Below, piece by piece: positions 1 through 26,949 of a stretch of DNA of 64,000 bases. Under the pieces are notes generated by a model. That model saw only the letters and a list, made by a program, of their open reading frames with translations, did no database searches and had not been told where the DNA came from. The stretch comes from Microbotryum violaceum (Eukaryota): the NCBI GenBank assembly GCA_001244265.2, contig CDLV01000008.1, forward strand, positions 1-64,000, in the 5' to 3' direction. The first letter of the stretch is position 1, and each line of letters starts with the position of its first letter. The translations under genes were made by a program, and so were the position numbers.

Positions 1-362
1 CTGGTTCTCCGTATCCCCAGTCGTGACTTTCTGTATACTCTCCCCCTTCTTTCTCTAGGCGCTCTTGCCTGGTTTTCGAGTATCTTTGCTCCCGCTCTTG
101 GGACGTTGAAGCGGCAGCAGTACTCACGCCCGTTGGAGTCCGCGTTAGGTGCTCGGCGGGTTTTGATCTGCGCAGCGCTCTTTGCGCGCAGGGGTTTGAC
201 TTTCACCCAACTGCTTGCCGTCGTTGCTTTATAACCTCTTTAGCTCTTTTTTGTAGCGGTCCGTCGTTGCTTTATAACCTCCTTTAGCTCTTTTTTGTAG
301 CGGTCCCAGCCAACCCGAAGGATTGCAATTTATGAGCCCCAGTCAAAAAAAAAAAAAAAAAA
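1..362 (+). mobile_element. Mirror copy of the LINE family A 3' UTR with poly(A) tail (345-362)
   Basis: Reverse complement of 10583-10900; ends ...ttatgagccccagtc followed by poly(A). Confidence 0.85.
218..304 (+). repeat. About 44-bp direct tandem duplication found only in the left arm
   Basis: ccgtcgttgctttataacctc(c)tttagctcttttttgtagcggt occurs at 218-260 and 261-304; the right arm has one copy at about 10641-10684. Confidence 0.9.
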
Positions 363-1087
363 ATTGAGATTGACTCGACGGTGACTCGCACTCTTTGGCT
401 TCGGGGTTCTGAGTCAAGGGAGGATCAGCAGACACAGGCAGAAAGTCGGCTTTGAGGGGCCAGGGACTGCTGAGGTGGAGGTTTTGAGGGGCCTCCACCG
501 CTCTTGTTGTGACCGAGCATAGACTTGGGACTTCGCGTGTCAAGGGTAGCTGCTCGTCGCTCTCCTGTCTTCGTCTTGACCGGGAAGTGGGGGCGGGGTG
601 GCCTCTTGTCGTTACGTCTTCCATCTAGTTCTTAGTGATTGCGCTCAGATCATCGCGTGGGTGCGTCGTCGAACCCTGTCCGTGCGACCGCCTCGCTCTC
701 GCCTTGCCTCGCCTCGCCTTCGTGATCTTCCCCTTCGGCCGAACCACCACCTCCATCCCAACTCTATTTCGTTCGGAGATGCATCGCTCGGTCCGCAAGA
801 GGGCCAGGAGCCCTCGCCCGTTCGCCCTCCTCAATGCTCACTGCACTGCACGCGCGTTGCCCCCTTCACCTGCTATGACGAGAGCGAAGATGACGAGGCA
901 TCTGTGGGCAGGTGAGGACGAAGGGTTAGCCTTGGACAACAAAAGCGAACGATCCGGCTACACGGAAGTTGAACGTGAGAATCTCGACGACGACGCGACG
1001 AACACGGGCCACACAGGGCGGTGGCCGCGGCGACGGCATGAACCAAGTCGCGGCGTTCAAGGCGAGCGCTTGCGCGGAGTGCCTCAT

Positions 1088-4000: not shown

Positions 4001-4123
4001 AAATTCTTGTGACATCATTTTCTCCTACTGTACACTAAATAGATCGCTTTCATCTTTCATTTGTTACAGGTTCACCGTTGCGGATCATGGACCATCTCGC
4101 GATTTGGCGTCGACTCGGTGTGG
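1088..4123 (+). mobile_element. Mirror copy of LINE B1 (RT plus C-terminal zinc finger), heavily frameshifted
   Basis: Fragments [38 protein letters not shown] and CLVCGAPKDDREHYFFDC are spread over several frames; reverse complement of 6785-9845. Confidence 0.9.
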
Positions 4124-5434
4124 GTTAGCACGAGGTCCCAGCTGGATCATGTTCGTGCCAGAGGCACGAGAGTTCAATGCGGCAGGCCCACCGTGCTTTC
4201 CATTCTTTCCAGCAACTCGGAAGCCGGTGGTCGAAGTCAAAGTCGAAGTCGAGGCCCCCGGAACAAGGGCGGCGGTGGCCGGAGTCGAAACCGGCTTCCT
4301 GCAAGCCCCCACTGGTGTCCGGCGCGATTGCACACGGCGCAGTAGTGCGTCTCAAATTCGTGTCGCAAGCCGTACTTGGCGCCCAGGATCTCGATCTCTT
4401 GTGGCAAGGCGGCGTTGAGCGCAGCCTTCTGCGTCTCGGTGGAGCCTTGGAAAAGATCAGCATGTAAGCGAAGGTACGTGCAGTGGAACCCGTCTTCGGT
4501 CATGGCCATCGGGTCACCGTTTGGATCGACCGCGAGGCCCCGCTGTAATTGCATGAGGGTATACCCTTGCGTGCAACCAGCGTGGCCGAAGGAGGAAGTG
4601 AGGGCAGCGTCGAGAGATTTTCGGAGCACGGAAGCGGGAATCGCGCTGGAAGAGGAGGGTAAGGTGAATCGCACCTGGACGATGTGGTTTAGGGGGAAAC
4701 ACTCGGAGCTCGGTGACCATCTCTTTTCCATGATAGGGGAATGGACCCGCTGCAGCGGCTTCGAGACAGGCCTGGTCGGATTCGAACACGAGATCGTACA
4801 TATGACGAGCAATCGGGAACCTCTTCGTTGCCTTCGTCACGATCGGGTTCAGCTTCACACATTTCGAGAAGAGCTTCTCGACCTCGGGGTCAAGCTCGGC
4901 GCCCTTGGGCCGCGCGAACATGAATGGCGTCTCGGCCAGCCCAAAGTGCTTACGCAGCGCAATCTGTACAGGGCCTCTTGGGGACCAGGTACCATCCATG
5001 CTGACTCGGATCACGTTGGAGGCCGGCATCGCGTCGTTTCGTACCGCCCTTTGAGCAGCTCGTGCGAGAGCCGGCGCCTGCGAAGGCGGGCTGGAAGGGT
5101 CATACAACAGTACCATCAGCCGGCGGGTCGACTTGGAGGATGCTACGATGCCAAGGGCTTTGAAAGCCTTCTGCATCGACTTCTCATGGTCCAATCGAGC
5201 CTGAGAAGCCTGGGCAGACCAGGCTGGAGGATTAACGGTTCCTCCAGTGACCGTCTCACGGGTTTCCGTGTTGAGTGATTCATCTCTCAACACGTCACCA
5301 GCCCACGGAGCGTTGGGCGGGTGCAGGGTGGGCCGGGCGGATCCGGCATCACTTCTTGTAGTCGTCCTGTAGCTCTTGAAGCGGTTGCTGGGCGACTGTA
5401 CACACTACACGACGGTACACACTTTGTGTGTGCC
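4122..5434 (-). mobile_element. Mirror copy of the 5' part of LINE family A (5' UTR plus ORF1 N-terminal part)
   Basis: Reverse complement of 5471-6786; ORFs 4514..5293 and 4237..4812. Confidence 0.8.
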
Positions 5435-5470: not shown

Positions 5471-6784
5471 GGCACACACAAAGTGTGTACCGTCGTGTAG
5501 TGTGTACAGTCGCCCAGCAACCGCTTCAAGAGCTACAGGATGACTACAAGAAGTGATGCCGGATCCGCCCGGCCCACTCCTGCACCCGCCCAACGCTCCG
5601 TGGGCTGGTGACGTGTTGAGAGATGAATCACTCAACACGGAAACCCGTGAGACGGTCACTGGAGGAACCGTTAATCCTCCAGCCTGGTCTGCCCAGGCTT
5701 CTCAGGCTCGATTGGACCATGAGAAGTCGATGCAGAAGGCTTTCAAAGCCCTTGGCATCGTAGCATCCTCCAAGTCGACCCGCCGGCTGATGGTACTGTT
5801 GTATGACCCTTCCAGCCCGCCTTCGCAGGCGCCGGCTCTCGCACGAGCTGCTCAAAGGGCGGTACGAAACGACGCGATGCCGGCCTCCAACGTGATCCGA
5901 GTCAGCATGGATGGTACCTGGTCCCCAAGAGGCCCTGTACAGATTGCGCTGCGTAAGCACTTTGGGCTGGCCGAGACGCCATTCATGTTCGCGCGGCCCA
6001 AGGGCGCCGAGCTTGACCCCGAGGTCGAGAAGCTCTTCTCGAAATGTGTGAAGCTGAACCCGATCGTGACGAAGGCAACGAAGAGGTTCCCGATTGCTCG
6101 TCATATGTACGATCTCGTGTTCGAATCCGACCAGGCCTGTCTCGAAGCCGCTGCAGCGGGTCCATTCCCCTATCATGGAAAAGAGATGGTCACCGAGCTC
6201 CCGAGTGTTTCCCCCTAAACCACATCGTCCAGGTGCGATTCACCTTACCCTCCTCTTCCAGCGCGATTCCCGCTTCCGTGCTCCGAAAATCTCTCGACGC
6301 TGCCCTCACTTCCTCCTTCGGCCACGCTGGTTGCACGCAAGGGTATACCCTCATGCAATTACAGCGGGGCCTCGCGGTCGATCCAAACGGTGACCCGATG
6401 GCCATGACCGAAGACGGGTTCCACTGCACGTACCTTCGCTTACATGCTGATCTTTTCCAAGGCTCCACCGAGACGCAGAAGGCTGCGCTCAACGCCGCCT
6501 TGCCACAAGAGATCGAGATCCTGGGCGCCAAGTACGGCTTGCGACACGAATTTGAGACGCACTACTGCGCCGTGTGCAATCGCGCCGGACACCAGTGGGG
6601 GGCTTGCAGGAAGCCGGTTTCGACTCCGGCCACCGCCGCCCTTGTTCCGGGGGCCTCGACTTCGACTTTGACTTCGACCACCGGCTTCCGAGTTGCTGGA
6701 AAGAATGGAAAGCACGGTGGGCCTGCCGCATTGAACTCTCGTGCCTCTGGCACGAACATGATCCAGCTGGGACCTCGTGCTAAC

Positions 6785-6786
<2 letters not shown>
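5471..6786 (+). mobile_element. 5' part of LINE family A: short 5' UTR and ORF1 (MPDPPGP...) with a CCHC knuckle
   Basis: ORFs 5553..6218 and 6044..6823 join across a C-run frameshift near 6200-6215. They carry a CX2CX4HX4C knuckle (CAVCNRAGHQWGAC). The last 57 nt (6730-6786) are identical to the 5' end of element A at 15940-15996. Confidence 0.8.
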
Positions 6787-10216
<3,430 letters not shown>

Positions 10217-10309
10217 TCACGAAGGCGAGGCGAGGCAAGGCGAGAGCGAGGCGGTCGCACGGACAGGGTTCGGACGACGCACCCACGCGATGATCTGAGC
10301 GCAATCACT

Positions 10310-10572
10310 AAGAACTAGATGGAAGACGTAACGACAAGAGGCCCACCCCGCCCCCACTTCCCGGTCAAGACGAAGACAGGAGAGCGACTGAGCAGCTACC
10401 CTTGACCCGCGAAGTCCCAAGTCTATGCTCGGTCACAACAAGACGCGGTGGAGGCCCCTCAAAACCTCCACCTCAGCAGTCCCTGGCCCCTCAAAGCCGA
10501 CTTTCTGCCTGTGTCTGCTGATCCTCCCTTGACTCAGAACCCCGAAGCCAAAGAGTGCGAGTCACCGTCGAG
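10310..10572 (-). mobile_element. Diverged B-related 3' UTR segment, probably the 3' part of the internally deleted element C
   Basis: Clearly similar to 20410-20830 (gtcacaacaagacgcggtg, cagtccctggcccctcaaagccgactttctgcctgtgtc). Removing element A and one target-site-duplication (TSD) copy joins it directly to C ORF2. Confidence 0.6.
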
Positions 10573-10582
10573 TCAATCTCAA

Positions 10583-13500
10583 TTTTTTTTTTTTTTTTTT
10601 GACTGGGGCTCATAAATTGCAATCCTTCGGGTTGGCTGGGACCGCTACAAAAAAGAGCTAAAGGAGGTTATAAAGCAACGACGGCAAGCAGTTGGGTGAA
10701 AGTCAAACCCCTGCGCGCAAAGAGCGCTGCGCAGATCAAAACCCGCCGAGCACCTAACGCGGACTCCAACGGGCGGTGAGTACTGCTGCCGCTTCACGTC
10801 CCAAGAGCGGGAGCAAAGATACTCGAAAACCAGGCAAGAGCGCCTAGAGAAAGAAGGGGAGAGTATACAGAAAGTCACGACTGGGGATACGGAGAACCAG
10901 GAATACTAAGACAGAGAGGAGGGGAACACACCCGAGGGGCCAAGGTAGGGGGTCGAAGCCGGAGGTAGAGGTCCCCAGGGACTAACAGGCCGCAGCCAAG
11001 CCCCAGCTACTCGTCACCCCGACAGCGCCTGATGTCCTCCCTTGGCTGAATCTCGAGTGCTGGCTGTTGAGCCGTCGGGGCCGAGAGAAAAGCGATCCAG
11101 TACAACGAAACGAGCCTCGCCTTGACGCGAGGATATTGACCAGAAACGAGCGACCTTCCTTCCCGAGCCATGCCGTAGATCTTGACCAACGCGAACGAAC
11201 GAACCATTCGACGGAATCCAACACACGGCTTAGGAGTAAAAGGAGAAGTGGCTGAAGCGTAGTCAACAACCGAGCAACAGGAACGAGAAGAGGAAGGGAA
11301 GGGAAAAAAGGGGGGAAAGGAGAGGGAAAAACTTCACAAAGCCTCCAACGCAAAGACAATCGACCTGGCTTGCCGATCCATCCAAGAACAAAAAAAACCG
11401 CTACTGCGCAAAGTAGAGAGAGAGAGGGAGAGGTGCGCAGCCTTCCACTGCGCAACAAGTTTCGAGACAGTCAGTTTCTAAAAGAGGAGTCGACCTCCGA
11501 AAAAGAAGGGAGGAAAGGAGGGGAGGAAAATGGGAAGGAAGGACTTAACTCGGTCATCACACCTCCCAATCTCGAGCCCCAGGCACAAAACCCGCTCGAG
11601 AGAGAAAATCTCGCTCGAACGCTCTGAGTGCACTGGGGAGCGAGGGAGGGGCCACGACGCGGTCCTTCTCGAACCGCTGGTGGACGTGCCAGCGGAGCAG
11701 GTGCAGCCGCTGGAAGCCGATCGCGCAGGCCAGCCGAACCCACATCCATCTCGAGGTCGTTCTCCCACGACCCCGCAAAAGGGGGAGCCCCATAGTCAGC
11801 TGCTCCGGAGTGAACGTCGACGGATCGACGTCGGTATCCTCGATGCCCAGCTTGTCGAACAGAATGCGAAGCACCCCACCCCAGAAGCTGGTCGAGTACG
11901 CGCACTCGAACAAGTAGTGCGACACCGTCTCGATGACCGCTACATCGTTGCCGCAGAACAGACACGTCGGCGAAGAGGCATGACCCTGAGTATGCTGCCT
12001 CTTGCGCGTCGGTGTCGGGCCGTACATGAGCCGCCAGTGGGTGTCCTGCTCCACAGCAGACGCGAACCGGTCATGAAGCCATCTCCAGAAGCGCTTCCTA
12101 TCGCTTTGAGAAGTCCCATCACGGAAACGCTTGATACGATCCTCCCTCCCTGGGAACCGAACCACGTTCACAAGCCGACGAAGCTTGCGAATAGTGAACG
12201 GTCGGGTGAGCCCAAAGAAGTTGAAGCACCGAGGACGGGGAGCCTCCTTGAGAGGTATCCGAGCAGGTCGCAACGCGGTCTTGGGCAGCAAGGCTTTCGC
12301 CTTGAGCAACTGACCCACGCGCGACCACACGTGCTCGTGCTGTAGGGCGGGTTCCTTAGAGTGCTGCCAGAACCCGCGTCGATGACCAACCAGAGCCCAG
12401 CCCTTCCCTTCGTCCCTCCAGTACAGGTCCGCGATCTGCGCAAACTTCGCCACTGCGTCCGCATCGTCGTATGCGTGCTTGGCACCTTCAGCATAGAGTG
12501 AAGGGAGGCGAGGCGGAAGCGAGAGCAATTCGGGGAGCGTAAGGAGTTCGGACTTGATGGTTGGAAATGTGACCCTGGCCGCTGCAACGACTGCCCCCCA
12601 GCGCGTCGAGTCGCGATACAGCTTCTCGAGCCGAGCCGTGCTGCTGAAGAACCCCCACGGACTGAAATCGCGGGTCGCAGCGACGAGTGACCTCCAGCTC
12701 TCGCGAGCTAGGGGCGCCCAGATCGCCTCGTTCGAGCCCGCCACAGCATCCCAAAACCGAAGCGCCACCGAATGAACGATGTCGCCGATTGAAATCAAGC
12801 CCAAGCCACCGTCCTCCCGAGCCTGGAACACGAATTCGCAAGCGACGGTGTTTTGCCGCGGCCCTCCCCAGACAAAGTCCGTCAGTGCCGTCTCCGCCGC
12901 CTGAATGAACCATTGAGGCGGTATGTCGAACGACAGCACGTGCAGGACCGTCGAGGTGATGTGGGCGTTCGCATAGAAAACCCTCCCACTCGGCGAAAGC
13001 GTCCGGTCTCGAGCGGCGCGGGCCTTGGCCTTGATCCTGTCAAGAACATGGGTCCAAAACAGTTTCGAGTCACCATGGCGAAAGAAGGCATAGCCGCACC
13101 ACTTGAAGCTCTCCCCCTCCTGCACCGTTGGCAGCGCCTGCGCAGTCTCGTCCCGAAGCCAGTTCGGTCCGAGTGGTAGCACCAGCGTCTTGTCCGTGTT
13201 GGTCTTCCCGTTGGTTGCCTCTTACCACGTCTGCGACAGCGTTTCCAGCTTCGACAATGCCGCCGGTGACTCCATCACCACCACAGCATCGTCGGCAAAC
13301 GCCAGATGCGTAAGCTGCGCACGCGGCCCCCCTGGCCACACCTTCTGCAGGTCGAGCGCGATCCCGCGCCGAACGAGGGCGTCGAGGAAGGGCTGGAACG
13401 TGATGTTCCAAACCGGGCACGAGAGGGGATCCCGCACCCCCAGAGTCTCGGGATCGTACAGAGCGCGCAGCAGGGAAATGAAACGCTCACCAAAGCCAAA

Positions 13501-15996
13501 GGCCTCGAAGACGTCGAAGATCCATGCGTGATCGACCCGATCGTACGCGCTCTGCTGATCCAAGGACAAGAGGGCGCCCTCGGGGAAAACTTCAGTGCCT
13601 AGCGACTTGAGTTTTTCGAGAAGGAGAGTGAGATGACTTCCCGCGTCTGCTGAACGTCTTGATGGCATGAACCCGTGTTGCGCCGGCGGCAAAAGCTCGC
13701 CGAGCACCCCATTGAGTCGCGCCACCAAGACCTTGCTGAGGACCTTGTAGGTCGTCTCGCGCAGTGTGATCGGTCGATATGCCCCCAGTGATTTCAGATT
13801 GGCCCCCGGTTTGTTCTTGGGCAAAAGCCGCACCAGCCCCTCTGCCAAGGACGCCGTCATTTTACCCCCTCCCAAATCGAGTTGAACAAATCCAACAGCT
13901 TGGGAGCAAAGTAGGTTGGCAGCGCCTTGAAGAGCTCGTACGGAATGCCCGAGGGCCCCGGTGATCGCCCCGAATCCGTCTTCTTCAACGCCGCTTCAAC
14001 CTCGAGGAGGGTGAAGGGCTCGTCAAGCGCCACTCTCGCTTGACGAGGCAGCCGACGACCGAACGTAGGGTCCGAGCGGTCGTCATCGTAGCATTTCGCT
14101 GCGCGAATAGGGTCGAGCAGGGACCGACGTGTGTTCGTCGGGTCGCCACGAGCTGGGTCCGGCGTGAAGAGCGACTGTGCGTGCCGTGAAGCAATGCCCA
14201 GCGCCTCCTGCATGTCAACGGTCTCGGTGCCATCCACATCCTCCAGCGAGACGATGCTCGTCTGGCGACTCCGGCGGTTGAGACGCGTGCGAATGCTTGC
14301 CGATTGACCTTCCCTCGAGTCGACTGACGGCACATGCGCACGAATGCGCAGCCACTGAGCCTCCTTTACCGCCAACTGGTCCAACCGCGACTTGGCAAAA
14401 GCATACGCATCGCGCTCGGCCTCATTCATGTGCTCACCGCGTGCCTCCAAAGCCTCCATGACGGATTGGCTCTCGGCCCGCAGTCGGCGCATGTCGGCAC
14501 GAGTCGAGCGGTATCGTGCATGGCCAGCGACTGCAACCGCCCGCAGAGCGGCGTCATAGACGTCGCCGAGCGGAGCGGTCCCCTCGAGCCTTCGATAGAC
14601 CTCGTCGACGACCCCGGGAATCGATGCGACAAAGTCTTGATCGTCAAAGACCGTTGGGTTGAGCCTCGAAATGAAATCGCTCGTAGAGGGAAGAGAAAGG
14701 GGGGTTCGGCATCAGCGTTCGACGTAGGCAATGCGAAAGTCGCAACTACAGGTCTGTGGTCCGAACAGGGCGCGTCGAAGAGCGTAGAAGCGCTCAACAA
14801 CCGGTTTGCCCAACTGCATTGGACAAGAATATAGTCGATCCGCGACCACGAGCAAATCTTTCGCTCCTCCCCTCTACCACGGTAGTGAGGACGAGTGAAT
14901 GCGGGGGTGCAAGATTGGACATGTCGGACCGTGTCGAGTGCCTTGAACGCGATCTTTGACAGCAAGGTCTGCCAGTGCGATACAGGAGTCCAAGCGCGAT
15001 CGGTGATGGACACTCGGTCGACCGATACATCCGGACAATCATTGAGATCGCCGGCCAAGATCCGAAGAGTCTTGGGTCTCGGGGCGTTGAAATGCAGGAG
15101 CCCGAAGAAGTCGCGACGATCGTCCTCCTGTACCGGCGCGTACATGTTGATGATCTCAACATCGAGCTCCTCAAGACGAAACACCGAGCGCAGAATCCGA
15201 CCGTCGAGACGAGGAGCTCCTGCAAAGACGACCGGGGTAGAGGAAAGGAGATGGCCCGCCAAAGGTGAGCCATCGGGTATGAGGGTAAGGACATGAGGAG
15301 TGAAACGAATACAAGCCCCTGGCCAAGCACTCTCGAAGCCTTCGCGCGACGCGTTGTAGCTGAGGTGGTGCTCTTGCAGGAGAATGGCCGCAGGGGCCGG
15401 CCGAAGGGTTTTGAGATAGCGGATGATTTTGACTTGGTTGACTGCGTTCTTGATCGATCGGACGTTGAACGTTAACACGGTGAGGGACTCAATCATGAAT
15501 AAATTGGATCAGCGCCGCCCCCCTCGAATTCGGTCATCTCGGACCTGTGACCCCCTGAACTGTTGCCCCTGAGCCGTCACCCCCTGATGCACCGAGGATC
15601 ATGGCGGATCCCGCCCGGGTGACACGTCGGTTGCCGGGTGCCGAGCTCGAACGAAGGCGTCGAGGACTCGTCGAGGCTATCGAGGTCGTCGAGGTTGCCG
15701 ATGATTCCGACGTGCCACCGGACAAAGGCGATGCCGGAGCAGAAGCAGAAGGCGAAGGAGAGGTCGGGGTCGAAACGGGCGCCGCTGTCGTCGTCTGCGT
15801 CTCCTTTGTTGGGCCCGTGGTCGCACGGGTCAACGTCTCTTTCCCAGTGTCGCCGCCCTCCGGTTCGGTCGAAGCGACCGATTCGCCGCCGCCGTCGTCG
15901 TCGTTCGCATCGTCCTTGTTGCCGGTCGCTGCACCTGCGGGGTTAGCACGAGGTCCCAGCTGGATCATGTTCGTGCCAGAGGCACGAGAGTTCAAT
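10583..15996 (-). mobile_element. LINE family A, 5'-truncated: ORF1 tail, ORF2 (APE-RT-zinc finger), about 950-bp 3' UTR, poly(A), 9-bp TSD TCAATCTCA
   Basis: Poly(T) at 10583-10600 on the + strand. TCAATCTCA at 10573-10581 and 15992-16000. The ORF1 tail ends at 15534 and ORF2 starts at 15496. Confidence 0.92.
11557..15496 (-). pseudogene. Family A ORF2: AP endonuclease, reverse transcriptase and CCHC zinc finger; frameshifted, with an in-frame deletion in RT
   Basis: APE motifs TFNVRS, LLQEHH, NMYAP, AGDLND, SRIDYILV and SDHRPV. RT motifs [29 protein letters not shown] and FADD. Also GGLGL and CLFC...HYLFEC. Spread over ORFs 14426..15496, 13857..14492, 13222..13875 and 11557..13182. Confidence 0.92.
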
Positions 15997-17526
15997 CTCA
16001 TAGGGGACCCCTGAAGGACCCGGAGATCGACCTTCGTGCGTGGTTCGAATCGCTGCGAGCACCTCGGCCTCGCTGATGGGCTCGGCCAGAATGTCGACGT
16101 GCGAATTCGAGAACCGCCGAAGGAAGCGAGCGTCGGAAAGCGGGTCGTCACAAGGTCTTGCTGATCTGATGGGTCCCAAGAGCTCATCCCGCATCGTCAC
16201 GATCTGTTCCGGATCCTTCGCTTCGACAAGGTAGTGCTGCTGGAAATGAGAATGGGTGTGCTCGAGCGTGCGCTCCATGTCAGTGGTGAGCTCGCCATCA
16301 GCGAGCCGGATACTCTGAAACTTCACATCCCGGGACCGAGCAGCCAGTTTGGCATGTACCGGACGACTGAGACGTTCCTCGGATGCAATCTCGGGCACGT
16401 GCGCCCTGATCCGGGACTGCCTTGCTCGCTCGTTCACAAGTTTGGTGAGAGCGTCGTGGGTGTTCGTCCAGTCGATAATATCGAAGGGGCTCAGCACCCG
16501 ACGAGACTCAATGTCCTGCAGTCGAGATACCAGCATCATTTCGAGGGCGTTGCGCTCCCGAAACAGACGCCGAGACAGCTCGAGAGCTTGGACCCGAGAC
16601 TCCGAGAGTACGCGCTGAAGGTCCGCGACCGGATCCCCAGACGGTGCCTGCTCAAGGAGACGAGTGACGAACTCCTTAAACTCGGCGTGTCTGAAGGTCG
16701 ACGAGTTGATGCGGGTCAGAAAATGAGCCGCCTGGGGAAGGCAGAGCTCCTCTTCGACCTCGGCACCACTTGCGCGCAGCCTAAATGTGACCGTAACCGG
16801 TCGATGATCCGACATGGATCGAGAGATATTGTACAGAGTAGAAGCAGAAACGACCCGTCGCTCGTGTCGCCGCTGCACCAGAACAAAGTCGATGCGCGCG
16901 CGCGAAATGAGCTGGCCGTCCTTGCTGAGATGTGGGCGCGTGGTCGCCGGCGACAGTGGGTGCATGAGCCGAATGGCATCCGTGTACGCCCCGTCGAGCC
17001 GAGACATAAGCACAGGCCAGTGGTGGGTGTTCGGGCGGTCCACCTGTTGCGCTCGATCCACCGCGGGAATAGGGCAGTCGTTCAGATCGCCCGCGATGAA
17101 CCGAATGTGAGAGGAGACGGTCGCCCGAAAGTGAAGGGAGGTGAAGAAGAGGAGGCGCTCGGCGGGTTGAACCGGAGCGTAGATATTGTTGAGTTCGACG
17201 ACGTCCGTCGAACCCCGCACATCGAAGGTGGTCACGAGTAAGCGCCCGCCAAGAGACTGACGCGTGCGACGATGACCACCGAGAAGAGGAGAAGAGCTTG
17301 GAATCAAAGTGAGGCAGTGTTGAGAAAAGTAGGCCTCGCCCTGGTGGGACTGGGCGTACTCGTGGCGTATGTGAGATTGTCGTGCTTTAGGAACATTATG
17401 TTCCTGGAGAAGGATAGCAGAAGGGGGAGGTGTGAGCGAAGTGAGATACGAAAGAAGCAGACGACGTCGTTCAGGGGTATTGAAGCCCCTGTTGACGTTC
17501 CAGGTCATGATGATGAACTCAATCAT
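15997..17526 (-). pseudogene. Family C ORF2 N-terminal part (AP endonuclease), truncated before the RT core
   Basis: ORF 15943..17526 has TWNVNRG, LLQEHN, NIYAP, AGDLND, ARIDFVLV and SDHRPV, and ends at [12 protein letters not shown]. Confidence 0.9.
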
Positions 17527-19497
17527 TACGATCGCGCCTTCGTTGCAGCAGCAGCTCCCTTGATGGACAACATAGGTCCGAATGTGGGTGGCGGGAGAGG
17601 GTCCGCAGCAGTCGATTCGTTCCAGTCCGATGTGCGCGCAACGCTGGTGAGACGCTGGATACGCTCGGACCGGCGAAGACCCTGGGAAGTTCCTTCTTCC
17701 ACCTCCTGCTTGGGCTCGGGCTCGGGATCACACACTGGACCTGGAGACGGCGAAGGCATCCAACCGGTCACAGACGGGGTGCGGTCCAACTCGGTGATCT
17801 CATCGTACAGACCGGCATCCTGTTTGCGCTCGCGATCCGACACACGATTCATCCAGTCGTCAGGAAGGCCGTCCATATCAAGCTGATGGTGACTGGCCGA
17901 TCGGAACCGCGTCAGCTCAGGGGTCGTCGAGACAACCTCAGGCATAGACCCCGTCTCGGCCGACTGCGATTCCCCTTCTTCCGCGTCACTCGTCTCCGTG
18001 TGTTCCTCCTGGTTCCCCTCCGCTCCGCGGTCCTGCAGATCCGACAGATCCGAAGGCTCCAACGGCGGCACCTCCTGCTGTGGTTCCAGCTGTGCCTCGA
18101 CTACGCTCATCTCGTCCTCGAGAGCCTGAGCGGGCTCCCCCTGCGCCTCTTCGGCCACGTCGCCGGCCAGACTTGCGAATGGGTTTGCGGCGACGATGAA
18201 ACCGCGAAGGGCGGATGCTGTGGGTGTAGAGCTTTGTGAACGAGCAGGGTAGACTCGTGGTGAGTTGTTAGTGGCCCTTGTGGGAAATGCGTTCTTCTTT
18301 GAACGCTTGGACGCGACAGGGGACATTGGGGAGAGGGAGAGGCTACATCACCTCTGCGTTGTTTTTGGGGGGTCGAGGTTTGCTCGATGCTGCTTTGGGG
18401 CTCGGCCTGGGGCCTTTGGTTGTTATTATTTTTCTGGGCGGCCTGCTGACGCTGGACCGGCTTTTGAACGCAGTTGTCGGAGTGGCCTACAAAACCGCAT
18501 CGGCGGCAGGAGGCTTCGGCCTCGTAGTCGTGGCGAAGGGGGGTGAGAGTTGCGAGTCGTCCTCGAAGGTCGATCCTCGTCGGTAGAACCTGTCGAAGTT
18601 GAGCACCGTTGTTTTTGAACAGATCGTCGTCGTCGAACTGGACGATGGCCGCGTAGTTTCCTCGAGCAACGAGATACGAGCCTTGAACGACTGTTAGAGG
18701 CTGCTGGAGTTGGAGCAAGTCGCATTTGTGGCCGTCCCCGGTAAGCTTGGCGACGACGCCTTGCAGTTTGCTCCAGAGGTCGTCACTCGTGTATTCAGCC
18801 TCAGGACTGATGATGAAACGCAGTTCGACGACGTTCTTGACGAACGCCAAGCGCTTGCGGACTTGGGCAAAGGAGCGTTTCCACTCGATCTTGGTCGCCG
18901 CGTCGTGGACTTGGTCGAGCGCCGCTGCGCTAGCGCAGCGCACCACGAACTTGAACCGGGTGTTGCCGTTTTGGATGATCGACTCCGGTGCGACTCCATG
19001 GATGACTGGAGCGTATTTCTGGAGCTCGGGGGGAGGACAACTCCTGCGGGCAGGTTAAAACACAACGACGTGTCGGGCGACAGGGTACGGAGCACCTTCG
19101 AGTACAACTCGGACTGCTCGCGTTCAGTGGCCACACCGGTGTGTTCGAACGTGACTTCAAGAACGGCACCAGACGTGTCGGCGATTGGTTTCGTTGCATT
19201 GAGTGCGCTAAAGCGCAGGGAGGTGGCCCGGTCCTTGCCGAAGCCGAGTGCTTCTTTGAGCACAAGGATGCGGGTGCCCTGGCGTGTGCCATCTTCGACA
19301 CTGATCATCTTCAGGATCCTCGCGACATCCTCCTTCCTCTTCTTCTCTTCATCACGCTTTTCCTGGTACAGCGCTAGGCCGGGGTTCCCTGGTCCCTCGG
19401 CGGCATCGGCCTCCGCCCCCGCGTCACCACGTGGTTGCCCCGTCGCTGCCGGCTCCGGAGGGCCGCGGCCCGGATCAGGCGGTGCCTGGTCGGACAT
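17526..19497 (-). CDS. Family C ORF1 (gag-like nucleic-acid-binding protein), read across two apparent frameshifts
   Basis: Starts MSDQAPPDPG, has the knuckle-like CRRCGFVGHSDNC and a low-complexity acidic C-terminus. Made of ORFs 18694..19635, 18107..18946 and 17526..18326. Its TAA overlaps the ORF2 ATG. Confidence 0.75.
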
Positions 19498-19570
19498 TGG
19501 GTCGATAGCTGATGTAGCGGTTGATGTATTCGATGTATTGACGTTTGCCGAGGTAGGGTAGTGCGATTGA

Positions 19571-19598
19571 GATGAAAGATGAAAGATGAAAGATGAAA
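19571..19598 (+). repeat. (GATGAAA)4 heptamer repeat at the 5' end of element C
   Basis: gatgaaagatgaaagatgaaagatgaaa, read directly. Confidence 0.9.
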
Positions 19599-19602
19599 AA
19601 GA

Positions 19603-20314
19603 TTTTTTTTTTTTTTTTTTTTGTATGAAACTCATCGCTAATTTGCAAGACGAGAAAACCCCCTACGGAACTAAAGGAGATGCTACCCAGCATGCACGAT
19701 GATGACCACAACCGCCGCTTGATGCGTTGTAACTAGCAGAACAGACCAACCCGATACATCCGAGTTCAAGTCCCCCCACCCACGGTTGCTCCCTCCCAGA
19801 GACGAATGAAAGGAAGGTTGAAGATTATACACAAGGAATCGGGAAAAGATGGATGAGTCGTTGGTGATGGTACATGTGTTGTACAGGCGAATCCGATTAT
19901 AGTCGTACAGTTGAACCTTCTTCGATCTTTTGACTTCAGCCCCCCCCTGAGACCGCCATACTCCTTGAAGCCCCTTAATTCTTTGAGACGCGTCGAACAA
20001 GGCCTCCGATGGCACAAACATCCCGCTCAATCCAAATGATTCACGTGGTCCAAAGGGGAATGTAACCCCCTGCGACCGCAGCAATCACATACCCCTTGTA
20101 CCCGTCTGCGCTGGATCTCCACCGCGGATTCCAAACCCCTTTTCGGTTACCAAAGTCGGCCCCCCCTCGCGACCGCACGACCCCAGATCACCCCCATTCC
20201 AATGACTGCAACTGCGAAACAGGCCTACTTCGCACAAAAACACACAATCCAGAGATTTCCGGGGAAAGTCACGGAGCATGTGACAGTCCATTGGACACGC
20301 CTCGGTCGGGTGCA
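19603..20314 (-). mobile_element. Orphan poly(A)-tailed unit D of about 0.7 kb, non-coding; probably a 5'-truncated LINE 3' UTR or a non-autonomous element
   Basis: Poly(T) at 19603-19622, same orientation as its neighbours, no recognisable ORF, and the same pre-tail motif as A and B. Confidence 0.6.
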
Positions 20315-20318
20315 GCGC

Positions 20319-23300
20319 TTTTTTTTTTTCAGCGTTTTTTTTTTTTTTTGTAGAAAACGTTCATCATATTGCCCCCAGTTCCTGTTCCCCCTGTTTTGGC
20401 CTACGGAAAAACTAGATTGAAGACTACGATGATAACACAAACCGCCCGCAAAAGTGCGAGAAACGAGCCAAGTCCACCAATCCGAGATTCGGATTCAAAT
20501 GCCCTAGCCAAGCGGTTGCTCCCCCCCGGAGACTAATGAGAGAGAGAAAGAGAGATGAAGAGAAAAAGAAAGAAAAGAAAAGTACTAACGACAGAAGGCC
20601 CACCCCACAGCCACTTCCCACTCGGTCGAGACGAAGACAAGAGCACGACTGCGCAACCACCACGACCCTCGACGCTCCAAGTCTCTGCTCAGTCACAACA
20701 AGACGCGGTGAAGGTCCCTCAAAACCTCCCCCATCGGCAGTCCCTGGCCCCTCAAAGCCGACTTTCTGCCTGTGTCCGCTGATCCCTCCCTTGACTCAGA
20801 ACCCCGAAGCCGAAGAGCGCGAGCCACACCGAGTCGACGCCAAATCGCGAGATGGTCCATGATCCGCAACGATGAACCTGTAACAAATGAAAGATGAAAG
20901 CGATCTATTTAGTGTACAGTAGGAGAAAATGATGTCACGAGAATTTGGTGTGTGTGTGTGTGTAGTGGTGGTGGGGGGAAAGTCGAACCCAGCCTCTACT
21001 GCCCTCTCCTCCCCCAAGCTCCTCCCGCCCTCAGCTTCAACCTCTCCTCCAAGATGATCCTCCTCCTCCCAACACCCTCCATCCTCGTCCCCCACTTTTG
21101 CATCCCCCACCTCCCGCTGCTGATCATCTCCAAGACCAGCCCGGTGAATATTTCGATCGTCCTCCCCGCTCCTTCTTGATCGCGTAGACTGGCCTTGAGC
21201 TTCGGAAGTCCGAACATGCGTTGAACAGCCGTGTAATGCGTGTTGTCGATCGTGTCGAGCCCCAGTGCGTCGCAGAGCACGCTCCTTGCCGCGATCCAAA
21301 CGTTCCCAGAGTCAACGCAGTCGAAAAAGTAGTGGTCGGTGTCGTCCACCGGCGCTTCGCAGACGAGGCACGCGGGAGAAGTGTCGTGATTCTGTTGGTG
21401 TTGCAGCTTGCGCGTCGGGGTGAAGCGGAGAATCAGCTTGAACCAAACTTCCCTCTCCCTCGCCGTCAGTGCCTTCGAGTTGACCGCCTTCCAAAAGCTC
21501 CTGAGGTCGTCCGGCTGCGGTGGTCCCTTGAGCCCGAGCGTGTTGGTAAAGGCCTTCGCGTTCAGGACCCGGCGGATGCGACGGATGGTGTACGGTCGAG
21601 CCATGTTCAGCAGCTTGTACTGGCTCGCCTGCTGTGGAAGCACCGGGTCCGGAAGGCGCTGCTCCATTGCGAAGCGGGCCACGGGCTTGGGGAGAATCGC
21701 CTCGAGTGGTGCGCTGGTGCCGATCCGGGGAGGCACGTTGAGCCGTCCTGCCGCCACCGCCACCGCCAAGGGCGTGTTCTTGTGTCGATCGACAGTGAAC
21801 CGGTACCAGGCCGCGATTGCCAGTCGCTGCGGGAGCCCGCGTCGATCGTACTCGCTGTTGTCGCCGAGCACATCCGCCGGCGGCGTCCAAAGGTGAAACC
21901 CCCCACCCGCATACAACTCGCGCCGGTAAAGATCCGCCACCTTCGGGTAGCCCTGGAGACGAAGGTAGTCAGGTATATGAACCGCGTCGATGGTCTGTCT
22001 CCCTCTGATGGGGGTGTGGAGGCTGCCGAGCAAGGTGGGAAGCGCGAGCAGGTTCGCGGTGGTCAAGGTCCTCGGGTTGACCTGCGCGTCTTGCTGTTTC
22101 GGAACCCCCAAAGCTGCTCGCCATCGGGGATGGAGGTCGCTGGGGATGGGAGTGGATGGATGTGGCCAGAGATCGGTGGCCAGGTCGAGGTCGGACTGAG
22201 CTCGCTGGAGTGCCGCGCGCGCAAGTCCTTGCCAGATCGCGCCCGAACCGCCGAGAAGAACGTCCCAGATCCGTGCCGCAACCGCGTCCACGACGTCCTG
22301 CATCCTGATCACCCCGAGTCCCCCTTGAGCTTGGCTGTGAACACGATATCTCTGCCGTAGCTGGTCCTGCCCTTGCCCCCACGGACGAAATCGACGAGCA
22401 TGTCATCGAGCTTCTTGACGACTTCGGGCGGCGGGATGTCGGCTGCAAGGAAGTGCAGGATCTTGGGGATGGCGTACCGATTGACGTAAAAGGCACGGGT
22501 GTGGTGTGTGAGCCAGCGATGCTGAACCCCTTCCAGCGTCGCCTCGAGGCGTTCGATGAGATTCGCGTAGGCGAGTTCGGTGTCGCCGCTCGGGTCGAAG
22601 GGGAGGCCGATCCACTCGAGCGACTCGCCTGCGGCCTTGACGACGAGCGGGCGTTGCCCCGGGTCCCAGCGGCGTCCGATCGGTAGGACGACCGTCTTGT
22701 CCGTGTTGAGCCGGCCATTCGTTGCATGCCTCCAGTCGAGCGCCAGGTCATCGAGCAAGTTGAGTGACCCCAAGCTCGCGACGGCGACGACAACGTCATC
22801 GGCAAAAGCAAGCGATGTAATGGCGCGGCTCTGTGGGTACGGATGAAGTGCAGGTATGGAGAGATTCAGCGCGATGTTTCGACGGTGTAGAGCATCCAGA
22901 AACGGCTGAAACACGATGTCCCAGACCGACGACGACGCCGGGTCCCCTTGGCCGAGCCCACACGTCAGTCGTACCGGCACCGTCAAGAACCCATTGATGA
23001 TGTAGCGGGCCGAGGTCGAGTCACCCGAGTAGAGCATCCTCAGCACGCGAAGAAAGGTGGCAGGAGCGCCCAGAGCGTCAAAGATGGCAAAGATCCAGTC
23101 ATGCTCGACGAGGTCGTAGGCGGACGATTGGTCAAGAGATAAGAGTGCGGCCGCGGGGAACTCGGTCCTGCGCGCGCCAACTTCCTCGATCAGGAGACGA
23201 AGGTGTAGTGCAGCGTCAGCCGATCGGCGGTCCTTGACGAATCCGTGCTGCTGCGGCGGGAGGAGATCGGGTAGAATCTGGTTCAAACGGGCGACATAGA

Positions 23301-24124
23301 CCTTGGTAAAGATCTTGTAATCGCACTCGCCCAGGGTGATCGGCCGGTACGACGAAAGTTCGGCGCGATCGGCATTCTTCTTGTGTCGCTTGAAGATGAG
23401 GCGCACGAGTCCTTGGCCCTGCTTGGGAGAGAGTGAGCCTCGCTCTATCATCGCGTTGTAGGCCTTGGTCAGCACCTTGGCCCATGCCTTGGGTGCGGTC
23501 TGGTAGAGTTCGTAGGGCACGCCCGACGGTCCCGGCGATCGCCCCGGGTGCGTCGTCCCGATCGCGGCCACGACCTCGTCCTCGGTGATTGGTCGCTGGA
23601 GTAAGTCGTTCTGTGATTCCGAGAGTCGGCGCAGAAAGAGAGGATCGAGCGCGGGTCGTCGCAAGTCCGCGCCGCCCTGATCGGCGCGAGGAAATCGTCC
23701 CGAAGTCGGTCGACGCGGTCCGGGTCACGAGGCTCGATGTGGTAGAGGCGCTGGAAATGCGCCTGCGTGTGGTCAAGAGCGACATCAATGTCATGCGTTA
23801 GCTCTCCGTTGCTCAAGCGCAGTGCTGTGATCTTGGAGTCCGAGTTCCGCGCCGCGAGCTTGGCGTGGACCGGCCGCGACAGTCGTTCCTCGGAGGCGAT
23901 CTCGGGTACGTGGGCTCGGATCCGGAGTAGGCGCGCGCGCTCCTCGACCGCCCGCTTGAGTTCCTCGGACGTCCTTGTCCATTCTGCCGTTTCCGCCTCC
24001 CCCATTCCGGTATCGCCTCCAGATCCTGCACCCTCCCCACCAAATACTCCATCCGTTCCGTCCGCTCCCGATGCAGCCTCCTCGCCATCTCCCCACCCCT
24101 ATCCCTGCACGCCTTCAGAATGAC
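20319..24124 (-). mobile_element. LINE B2, 5'-truncated: linker, RT, zinc finger, 3' UTR and poly(A)
   Basis: ORFs 23469..24005, 22309..23664 ([23 protein letters not shown]) and 20996..22312 (CLVC...HYFFDC). Poly(T) at 20319-20349. Confidence 0.93.
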
Positions 24125-24920
24125 TTTTTTTTTTTTTGTAGAAAACGTTCATCATATTGCCCCCAGTTCCTGTTCCCCTGTTTTGGCCTACGGAAAAACT
24201 AGATGGAAGACTACGATGATAACACAAACCGCCCGCAAAAGTGCGAGAAACGAGCCAAGTCCACCAATCCGAGATTCGGATTCAAATGCCCTAGCCAAGC
24301 GGTTGCTCCCCCCCGGAGACTAATGAGAGAGAGAAAGAGAGATGAAGAGAAAAAGAAAGAAAAGAAATGTACTAACGACAGAAGGCCCACCCCACAGCCA
24401 CTTCCCACTCGGTCGAGACGAAGACAAGAGCACGACTGCGCAACCACCACGACCCTCGACGCTCCAAGTCTCTGCTCAGTCACAACAAGACGCGGTGAAG
24501 GTCCCTCAAAACCTCCCCCATCGGCAGTCCCTGGCCCCTCAAAGCCGACTTTCTGCCTGTGTCCGCTGATCCCTCCCTTGACTCAGAACCCCGAAGCCGA
24601 AGAGCGCGAGCCACACCGAGTCGACGCCAAATCGCGAGATGGTCCATGATCCGCAACGGTGAACCCGTAACAAATGAAAGATGAAAGCGATCTATTTAGT
24701 GTACAGTAGGAGAAAATGATGTCACGAGAATTTGGTGTGTGTGTGTGGTGGTGGTGGGGGGAAAGTCGAACCCAGCCTCTACTGCCCTCTCCTCCCCCAA
24801 GCTCCTCCCGCCCTCAGCTTCAACCTCTCCTCCAAGATGATCCTCCTCCTCCCAACACCCTCCATCCTCGTCCCCCACTTTTGCATCCCCCACCTCCCGC
24901 TGCTGATCATCTCCAAGACC
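24125..24920 (-). mobile_element. LINE B3, a short 5'-truncated copy (ORF2 tail, 3' UTR, poly(A)) with 6-bp TSD AATGAC
   Basis: Nearly identical to 20335-21138. Poly(T) at 24125-24137. AATGAC at 24119-24124 and 24921-24926. Confidence 0.92.
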
Positions 24921-24991
24921 AATGACCTCGAAGTCATTCTTTTGGTTGACTCTGGGTGCACATGCTCGACCCACCACTGTATCAAGTTACC

Positions 24992-25079
24992 GGTCTGCTG
25001 GCCCAATGGTTAAGGCGCTTGACTACGACCCGTTAACCTGTACATCAAGAGATTCCAGGTTCGAGTCCTGGGTAGATCA
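24992..25079 (+). tRNA. tRNA-Arg(ACG) with a 15-nt intron (25029-25043)
   Basis: Cloverleaf: acceptor GGTCTGC/GTAGATC, D-arm GCCC-AATGGTTA-AGGC, anticodon stem CTTGA/TCAAG with CT-ACG-A, intron at 37/38, T-arm CCAGG-TTCGAGT-CCTGG. A T-run terminator follows at about 25097-25106. Confidence 0.95.
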
Positions 25080-25339
25080 CTGAAGCCTCCCAAAGCCTTT
25101 TTTTTTGCACAGTTTGTCCGGCGCTCGTCGTACGACATGCACAGTGCACCCCGACGGACCCGGGGACTCAACCCACGTGTCCATCTGCCCCCTCTTGTTC
25201 TTTTTTGGTAGCAACCAGGTGCGGCGGACCGTAATCGTTGACCCGTTGCAATGCGATGTACTTTGCTGCAACAGCTGCGATACTGTTCAGTAATGGAAGC
25301 CTAGAGGTTGAAGTCGGGAGAGGACCGCGCGACGATAAT

Positions 25340-25860
25340 CAAATGTACACAGCCTTGATTTCATTACATTATCCGCTTCTCCGTTCTCAGTCCGATGAAG
25401 CAGAACTCTGACACGGTCCACATAAGTTGCTGCCAGGGACAACGCGACATACAACTGGCCGTGAGAAAAGACGGGCGTCTCCAGACACACTCTTACTTGC
25501 GCGAGTGACTGCCCCTGCAACTTGTTGAACGTCATAGCCATTGCCAGCCGATTCGGAAACTGCGTCCGATGCAGAGTGAACGGAAGCTCAGCTGATGACC
25601 CTGTCTTCAGCGTGATCCGTGGCAACAAAACGGGCTATCCAGCATGATCTTCTGTGAGAATGATAGCCTCGAGCACGGGTGTGTGTGACCGAGTTGACAA
25701 CAGTCTTGTGCCGTTGCACAGCCCCGCGGCGGAGTCCAAGTTTCCGAGGAGCATGACGGGACATCCCACTTTGAATTTTGCAGCGTGCAACACCATCCCG
25801 GGGATGTTGAGACTCTGAAGGCACTCGATCAAGAACAGTGATTCGTCAACGGGAAGGCAT
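25340..25860 (-). pseudogene. Helitron PIF1-like helicase C-terminal relic
   Basis: KVGCPVMLLGNLD...GLCNGTRL and LPRITL...[20 protein letters not shown]...[13 protein letters not shown] are degenerate versions of the Helitron helicase motifs. The frame is broken. Confidence 0.85.
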
Positions 25861-26168
25861 TGCTTCGGATCCCCTGTGATGTTACAGTCCAACCGGTCAG
25901 TTAGTCATGCTGCCCTGCGTTTTGCTTTTGAAAGATTGGCACACACCTGCCAACGCGACGGTCATTCCACCGAACCGAGCCGTTGAGGATCTGCCACGGG
26001 ATGGTGAGCCGTACTCCACGCGACCAGAGCCTGTTAAAACTATCAGTATTCTTGCTGTTGTCCATCTGTAGCAATGGCAGTGAAGACTCACATTTAGTAG
26101 TGTCCCATTGAACCGTCATTGGAAAGATTTATAAGAAAGGTTCTATAATAGATCCTCACACTTCCCCT

Positions 26169-26207
26169 TGGTCTCCCGAACCGGGGTCGAACCGGTGACC
26201 TCGGGAT
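26169..26207 (-). pseudogene. Isolated tRNA 3' half (positions 38-76 including CCA), tRNA-Tyr-like
   Basis: The minus strand reads A-TCCCG-AGGTC-ACCGG-TTCGACC-CCGGT-TCGGGAG-A-CCA. G72/A73 fits eukaryotic Tyr. No 5' half lies next to it. Confidence 0.7.
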
Positions 26208-26239
26208 AATTGGGACTTAGAGTCAATGCATTGCAATAG

Positions 26240-26307
26240 CCTGGCACCAGTGCAAAGGTCTAAGGGGAAGTATTGAAGGTGTTAGTAGACCTTGCACTGA
26301 TACCAGG
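26240..26307. repeat. Imperfect hairpin of about 22 bp directly upstream of the tRNA-like unit
   Basis: cctggcaccagtgcaaaggtcta (26240-26262) pairs with tagaccttgcactgataccagg (26286-26307). Confidence 0.85.
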
Positions 26308-26380
26308 GGCCGGATAGCTTCAGTGGTCAAAGCTTTTCCAATTAATGGAACTGACCCAGGTTCGATTCCTGGTCCAGCCG
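26308..26380 (+). ncRNA. tRNA-like 73-nt element (pseudo-tRNA or SINE head) with a non-canonical anticodon arm, nominally TTA
   Basis: Acceptor GGCCGGA/TCCAGCC (one mismatch), D-arm GCTT-CAGTGGTCA-AAGC, anticodon arm TTTCC-AATTAAT-GGAAC, T-arm CCAGG-TTCGATT-CCTGG. T-rich sequence follows. Confidence 0.7.
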
Positions 26381-26949
26381 TTTCTCTTCTTTTGTTGATC
26401 ATTTTTCGGGATCATTGTTGATTCCAACAAATTCTTCCGCTGTGTCACTGATGTCCAATGTCTGTTTTACATATCAGTTAACGTCATGCCTAACCATGTA
26501 ACCATGTCAAGTCACAACTCACGCATGCAGTGTCACCAGCTGATGGTGAAGAAAACAACTCGGGGGTTGACATTCAAAGAGGACGTGTTGAAGGGAATTG
26601 CTGCTTGGTAGTTTCCCATTAGCTCCTGAACAATCCCACACCAAGAGCACAGTTTATGAAGTTACTTACTCGAGTCCGTAGCTATACTGCATGCTGCAGC
26701 CATTTCTCGAGAAAACTTGTCCCGTATCGTTGCAGGGCTTCCACGACGACCCCTTCAAGTGTCGCGAGCTCGAGGCCATGTTGTCTCGAGCACAGTTCGG
26801 GTCGGCCCACCCGTTCGATATCCGCATGTTTGTCTGCGCCTGCACCGTGCCGCTGTCAGTATAGGGTCTCAAAGTCAGGCAAAGACTACTACGTACAGAG
26901 AGATGCGCACCTCAACTTTCCCCCCAGAGGTCAGCATTCATGATGCACA

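Follow-up and report, generated by a model that had tools for sequence, protein, structure and literature searches.

Genes for transfer RNAs (tRNAs) are the classic example of a safe haven for transposons in compact genomes, and the closest described systems to the one considered here are retrotransposons without long terminal repeats (non-LTR elements) that insert upstream of them. TRE5-A of Dictyostelium discoideum is found 37-211 bp upstream of tRNA genes with a mode of 47 bp, 59% of the insertions lying within 47 ± 3 bp, invariably with its 5' end toward that of the gene and with extra nucleotides reported at its 5' junctions (PMC5391098), and the P. pallidum element NLTR-B lies 39-64 bp upstream of tRNA genes (PMC5911963). 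The available sections of PMC5006619 and PMC5911963 list tRNA-directed non-LTR elements only from dictyostelids, in four lineages. As far as the literature searched extends, fungi are otherwise known for tRNA targeting by LTR elements only; searches of it retrieved no account of a tRNA-directed non-LTR element from a fungus, and a description in subscription journals or Repbase reports is possible. The available text of the Microbotryum lychnidis-dioicae genome paper, which gives 392 copies of long interspersed nuclear elements (LINEs) and 0 short interspersed ones (SINEs), uses the word "tRNA" 0 times (PMC4469406). The present analysis concerns the first 64,000 nucleotides of contig CDLV01000008.1 (forward strand, assembly GCA_001244265.2; hereafter the window) of the anther-smut fungus Microbotryum violaceum, a basidiomycete, in which a tRNA-Arg(ACG) gene is preceded by a stack of minus-strand LINEs. 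The two copies nearest to this gene, B2 and B3, belong to one family (B), which we regard as a plausible TRE5-like LINE directed to genes of RNA polymerase III (Pol III), the chances being about evenly balanced and the targeting unproven because the case comprises a single locus. That family B, perhaps together with the neighboring units C and D, independently evolved TRE5-like oriented integration about 30-75 bp upstream of tRNA genes is a tentative proposal, to which we give somewhat less than an even chance.

If true, this would represent, as far as the literature searched goes, the first Pol III-directed non-LTR retrotransposon outside dictyostelids and in fungi, and a further independent origin of tRNA targeting by LINEs. 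It would do so in a host group with many sequenced strains and species, which would permit the direct comparison of filled and empty sites, and the manner in which an element using target-primed reverse transcription (TPRT) reads the Pol III complex would become comparable with that of the integrase-based Ty elements in the same kingdom. Should the association be due to chance, nothing more than an ordinary cluster of nested LINEs would be left. The features closest to the tRNA gene are given below, and negative numbers in the text denote positions upstream of its first base.

20308-20334, no strand: spacer between the B2 tail and unit D, composed of GGGTGCA, GCGC, T11 and CAGCG
20335-24124, minus strand: B2 body, a 5'-truncated B-family LINE with linker, reverse transcriptase (RT), borderline zf-RVT, 3' untranslated region (UTR) and A15 tail (Pfam)
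24119-24124, no strand: distal copy of the B3 target-site duplication, AATGAC
24125-24920, minus strand: B3, a 5'-truncated B-family LINE nested in B2, consisting of the 3' end of the second open reading frame (ORF2), 3' UTR and A13
24921-24926, no strand: tRNA-side copy of the B3 target-site duplication, AATGAC, at -71 to -66
24927-24931, minus strand: B2 5' stub CTCGA, separated from the B2 body by B3 (from the continuation of family contigs past 24124 compared with the window)
24932-24953, no strand: 22-nt filler or flank at the B2 5' junction, unique in the window and unlike the family consensus
24954-24991, no strand: 38 bp adjoining the tRNA gene, taken as its original upstream flank, the first 7 nt being GGGTGCA
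24992-25079, plus strand: tRNA-Arg(ACG) gene with a 15-nt intron (Rfam RF00005, ARAGORN, by eye)
25098-25106, plus strand: T9 run, a likely Pol III terminator (sequence reading)

An earlier note, prepared from the letters of this stretch alone, had placed a tRNA-Arg(ACG) gene at 24992, and the gene was recovered at this position by Rfam with 49.5 bits and also predicted by ARAGORN. Its anticodon, the intron following position 37 and the A and B boxes were read by eye. Immediately upstream, B3 exhibits an A13 tail (T13 on the plus strand), a 6-bp target-site duplication and a 5' truncation, and is thus a clean retrotransposition. Both copies of AATGAC and the 71-bp distance from the B3 5' junction to the tRNA gene stood as the note had given them, as did the proposal that removing B3 extends the B2 frame, since the reading RVNQKNDFEVI / VILKACRD continues across the insertion site. 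B3 and the corresponding 3' end of B2 (20337-21138) are 98.9% identical over 802 nt; the differences amount to four substitutions in about 790 nt, one 1-nt indel, one 4-nt indel and the tail length. The sequence that B3 entered, AATGAC/CTCG, is not T-rich and contains no poly(A) tail, and lies 66-71 bp from the tRNA gene.

The B2 body ends in T15 on the plus strand (20335-20349) and matches RVT_1 at 1e-21, with zf-RVT at 26.8 bits, just below the cut-off of 27.5. For the placement of its opposite end, positions 21140-26500 of the window were compared with short-read contigs of four runs (X1, X4, X13 and X8), in which the B-family copies are collapsed. Beyond 24124 these contigs read CTCGAGCTCCCC..., with 28 nt shown by X1 and X13 and 8 nt by X8, and one 2005-nt contig of X4 extends 1743 nt beyond this position. 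We place the B2 head at about 24931, that is, at -60 or about 60 bp from the tRNA gene, because the window matches the family contigs only over CTCGA (24927-24931) and then diverges; the figure of about 35 bp given previously is hence replaced. The 22-nt stretch that follows looks like 5'-junction filler partly copying B2 in reverse: read by eye, it opens with 8 nt that are complementary, in reverse order, to B2 bases lying 6 nt inward of the junction, as in a snap-back. GGGTGCA, put forward in the same note as a possible B2 duplication, indeed occurs at 20308-20314 and 24954-24960, but the motif is found 14 times in the window against 8.7 expected and its 3'-side copy is separated from the T15 tail by GCGC-T11-CAGCG. 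As this duplication is weak, the B2 target lies somewhere between -60 and -32. The T11 with its flanking GCGC and CAGCG (20315-20334) could itself be what is left of an insertion that was aborted or truncated to an extreme degree.

The same comparison bears on the age of the two copies. B2 is at least 99.4% identical to the collapsed contigs of the four runs, in pieces of 227-1182 nt with 0-5 differing letters, and over its interior the contig depth exceeds that of the single-copy contig at 25001-25472 roughly 10- to 30-fold, depth here not being copy number. The contigs carry an extra C relative to the window after 22319 (4/4 runs), 23645 (3/4, X13 being without cover) and 23998 (4/4), and by coordinate arithmetic these three insertions join the three frames of B2 into one ORF2. 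Either the B-family consensus is intact or the window carries homopolymer errors, and the frameshifts in the LINE ORFs of this region may be assembly errors. An extra C was also seen in short-read contigs of other strains at the homopolymer sites 24174 and 24307. Both B2 and B3 are young, and the outer units look older, C being deleted and interrupted and the outermost copy, B1, being 81% identical to B2. Among the contig pieces listed for X1, X4, X13 and X8, none bridges the B3 or the B2 junction, and none gives the flanks of other copies.

Taken together, two separate B insertions lie upstream of the same tRNA gene, B3 at -71 to -66 and B2 between -60 and -32, both with the 5' end toward the 5' end of the gene, which is the orientation of all units at this one locus. 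B3 is nested in B2 and landed within about 10-30 bp of its truncated head. Because both copies are 5'-truncated, the site is not marked by a LINE promoter or 5' UTR, and the tRNA gene is the sole constant landmark there. The TRE5-like geometry that had been suggested thus holds for the B family, with two insertions 32-71 bp upstream and 5' ends facing the gene; the further suggestion that several families had hit the same upstream interval is borne out for this one family only, and another LINE of the stack (A) was inserted about 3.6 kb from the head of C. The units further out, D after B2 with its nested B3, then C with its deletion and interruption, and finally B1 with 81% identity to B2, stand in an order that fits repeated hits displacing older copies.

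In the mechanism that we propose, at least the B family would insert by TPRT in a narrow zone about 30-75 bp upstream of tRNA genes, in fixed orientation with the element's 5' end toward that of the gene, and each new copy would insert at the head of the preceding one or slightly inward of it and displace older copies outward. For B3, the tRNA-sense strand would have been nicked first, between -66 and -65, and a second nick would have followed 6 bp more distant from the gene. What determines the site would be how far it lies from the Pol III complex (TFIIIB/TFIIIC), acting by means of a tether or of the chromatin that the complex opens, rather than the DNA sequence, and D, C and B1 may have arrived earlier in the same way.

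In their protein layout, the units are identified as L1/Tx1-like LINEs with an apurinic endonuclease (APE), comprising ORF1, an ORF2 with APE, RT and putative C-terminal zinc motif, and poly(A), an assignment based on the ranking of Protein Data Bank structures and on one relative whose name is that given by its source. Exo_endo_phos was matched over its full profile with 27.1 bits in A (4.2e-6) and 28.2 bits in C (1.9e-6), the Pfam cut-off being 24.5, and the domain is missing from the truncated B2 and B3. RVT_1 was detected in B1 (8e-20) and A (1.4e-16), and zf-RVT reached 26.9 bits in A, just under the cut-off of 27.5. Tails of 13-20 A occur across the units, and B2, B3 and A are all 5'-truncated. 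The best matches among solved structures were human L1 ORF2p (8c8j, E 9e-23; 8uw3, 2e-22), with R2 proteins behind at about 1e-17. A 471-amino-acid RT fragment of B2 produced 39 protein matches, 22 of which are from Microbotryum (M. intermedium, M. saponariae and M. silenes-dioicae) at up to 90-98%, and outside the genus the closest protein with a name is a Chlorella "Transposon TX1" protein with 29% identity.

The domain order is shared with L1/Tx1 LINEs, and the mode of site choice is where the likeness ends. Human L1 nicks T-rich sites across the genome, whereas the B3 target is not T-rich, and target-specific Tx1 relatives (Dewa, Mutsu and Keno) insert by sequence inside small-RNA genes, whereas the Microbotryum copies lie outside the tRNA gene at a set distance. 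The likeness to TRE5-A and NLTR-B is broader. As described in the available sections of PMC5391098, PMC5911963 and PMC5006619, these elements share with the Microbotryum units an ORF2 with APE, RT and zinc motif (borderline in the latter), a separate ORF1 and an oligo(A) tail. They further share a position tens of bp upstream of the tRNA gene (32-71 bp for the B copies at the one locus considered) with the 5' end facing that of the gene, as well as 5' truncations and extra nucleotides at the 5' junction. The hosts of TRE5-A are amoebozoan, whereas the present one is a basidiomycete in which the association is known from one tRNA gene, and the likeness consists in insertion geometry and domain layout, the Microbotryum elements not being assigned to the TRE family. 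With yeast Ty1/Ty3 and Yarrowia Tyl6/Ylt1 they have in common a fungal host and a safe haven upstream of tRNA genes (PMC5911963, available sections). Those are, however, integrase-based LTR elements, and Ty3-type elements insert at the transcription start and Ty1 over a broad nucleosomal window, unlike the Microbotryum LINEs, which are TPRT-based and at this locus lie in one fixed orientation.

Further from the tRNA gene, the stack continues with the following units.

19603-20307, minus strand: D, a non-coding unit ending in A20 (recognized by its tail and a weak match to the B 3' UTR)
16001-19602, minus strand: 5' part of C, with 5' UTR, ORF1, ORF2 start and APE domain (Pfam Exo_endo_phos)
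10582-15987, minus strand: A, a LINE from another family that lies within C, with APE, RT, borderline zf-RVT, a 3' UTR of about 950 nt and A18 (Pfam, tblastx)
10329-10569, minus strand: 3' remainder of C, a B-type 3' UTR piece with 85.6% identity to B2 20586-20827
about 6785-10216, minus strand: B1, a B-type copy that is older or mosaic, with an overall identity of 81% to B2

The order outward from the tRNA gene, all on the minus strand, is therefore B2 stub, B3, B2 body, spacer, D, C 5' part, A, C remainder and B1. The head-to-tail minus-strand stack of C, D, B2 and B3 proposed earlier is real, but it does not start at 15997, as minus-strand LINE copies with APE and RT occupy the region upstream of the tRNA gene back to the window start. 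D ends in T20 on the plus strand (19603-19622), abutting the 5' UTR of C. It resembles the B 3' UTR weakly in two collinear blocks, one of 69 nt at 75% identity (E 3e-6) and one of 29 nt at 86%, and probably represents the 3' UTR of a distant LINE truncated at its 5' end. No match to the A 3' UTR was found outside the A-run, and no target-site duplication of D was found by eye. C begins with a 105-nt 5' UTR (19602-19498) followed by the ORF1 start codon (19497-19495); ORF1 contains a CCHC-like motif, and its ORF2 starts at about 17526, overlapping the ORF1 stop. ORF1 matched no Pfam family, and the CCHC-type leads from the Atlas were all below threshold (<0.9; best 0.88). Amino-acid identity between C and B2 is 58-66%, and the homology to B stops at about 15997.

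The poly(A) of C expected at 15997 does not exist; C is interrupted there by A, which exhibits 30-50% amino-acid identity to B (tblastx) and is flanked by a target-site duplication of 12/13 nt, GAGTTCAATCTCA at 15988-16000 and GAGTCAATCTCA at 10570-10581. Both duplication copies span the joint between the ORF2 of C and its B-type 3' UTR piece, and therefore the internal deletion of about 2.7 kb in C predates A. A landed exactly on this pre-existing deletion junction. The pattern of each poly(A) abutting the 5' end of the next unit holds for the A20 of D at C, but C has no tail and that of B2 lies 29 nt from D. The same variant as the C 3' remainder is present elsewhere in the genome, being seen as a loose end at 24614 in contigs of X4 and X8. 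As for B1, its similarity to B2 is about 80-88% over the RT, about 62-66% over the C-terminal part and 97% over the last ~400 nt, which suggests a mosaic or gene-converted copy. B1 ends at the same B position (about 20824) where the C 3' remainder begins.

Several observations weigh against tRNA-directed insertion, and some of them speak for chance nesting, in which LINEs piled up in a repeat-collecting region such as a pericentric or non-recombining tract, and the tRNA gene happens to lie at the edge of the pile without a role in site choice. The gene is enclosed by an island of transposable elements (TEs) of at least 26 kb, with TE remnants on its downstream side too and ordinary genes starting only at about 29.8 kb, and this context raises the chance of mere adjacency; in the assembly of M. 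lychnidis-dioicae, LINEs account for 0.93% with the 392 copies mentioned (PMC4469406, available text). Nesting at this locus does not need a tRNA gene, because A was inserted in the same orientation about 3.6 kb from the C head, far from the tRNA. Moreover, the older stack is rearranged (internal deletion and missing tail of C, mosaic B1), the 3' end of C being without poly(A) and neither this end nor the 5' end of D being definable. GGGTGCA as a B2 duplication is doubtful and kept as a possibility, the assembly carries homopolymer indel errors and a probably artefactual fold-back, and the evidence as a whole comes from one locus, chosen by a pattern-seeking reader. Nevertheless, chance nesting needs two independent B insertions at <75 bp from the 5' end of the same tRNA gene, both in the TRE5 orientation, with the younger copy placed within about 10-30 bp of the truncated head of the older. 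It also needs all five units to share one orientation and the youngest to be the innermost. Random nesting would lead one to expect none of these features, and we hold it to be unlikely, though by some way the rival to be taken most seriously.

New copies might alternatively have been drawn to the poly(A)/poly(T) tails of resident LINEs, serving as endonuclease and priming sites, or to their heads, regardless of the tRNA gene, and a same-orientation insertion into a tail would yield tail-to-head joints of the kind observed where the A20 of D abuts the first bases of C and where the B2 tail lies 29 nt from D with T11 in between. The B3 target, however, contains no A/T run, and the B2 head is a truncation point that offers no LINE-specific 5' sequence to attract B3. 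Stacking directed by tails further predicts B2 to be the oldest unit, whereas its identity to the present consensus of the family is at least 99.4% and C is deleted and interrupted; this explanation appears improbable. Still less credence is given to an assembly artefact, namely that an error-prone assembly of long reads mis-joined repeat copies into the stack or its junction with the tRNA gene. Positions 1-5434 repeat 5471-10900 in inverted orientation around a center of ~35 bp at about 5450, and this inverted duplication runs off the window start. Its arms differ by 5 mismatches against 56 gap openings and 100 gap positions, mostly single C/G, a composition typical of fold-back. The duplication more resembles an artefact of long-read fold-back, or sequence left unpolished, than a palindrome of great age. 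The single C missing at 22319, 23645 and 23998 relative to the short-read contigs is in line with such errors. The fold-back nevertheless lies >14 kb from the tRNA gene, and B3 and A possess proper tails and target-site duplications, which are not created by mis-joins. Direction of the B family to the tRNA gene remains for us the reading with about even chances stated at the outset.

Broader comparisons were also made. Among 23 listed public runs, 22 contain 63-75% of the sampled words of 19600-25100. As about 84% of this interval is B-family repeat, these figures are no evidence that the locus is conserved. Two joints in the short-read contigs, 24148 to 26273 and 21897 to 24127, were dismissed as T-run noise, their sides being 23-29 nt. 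A metagenome scan with a 12-sequence RT alignment kept 80 loci at 21-32% identity with no close relative among them, and a tRNA gene was present in 0 of the 60 of these loci that were scanned, which carry distant L1/Tx1-like LINEs and serve as a crude baseline.

The downstream side of the tRNA gene contains two further features.

25287-25904, minus strand: C-terminal remnant of a Pif1-type helicase, Helitron-like (Pfam Pif1_2B_dom, 3.6e-15)
26308-26380, plus strand: tRNA-like sequence with anticodon UUA inside a multicopy unit (Rfam 40.3 bits, ARAGORN)

The Pif1-type remnant probably derives from a Helitron, and over a segment of ~250 bp adjoining it (about 25849-26098) the summed contig depth is very high in each of the four runs. 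Contig depth is likewise raised over the tRNA-like unit of ~334 bp (about 26096-26429), which may be a tRNA-derived mobile unit. Some genomic copies of the surrounding repeat are without this unit, because joints from 26093/26095 to 26430 were seen in 4/4 runs. The ordinary genes beyond the island encode Far-17a/AIG1, Sec1, HisRS, DHHC, ATG11 and PWI proteins, and the window as a whole has a GC content of about 0.58.

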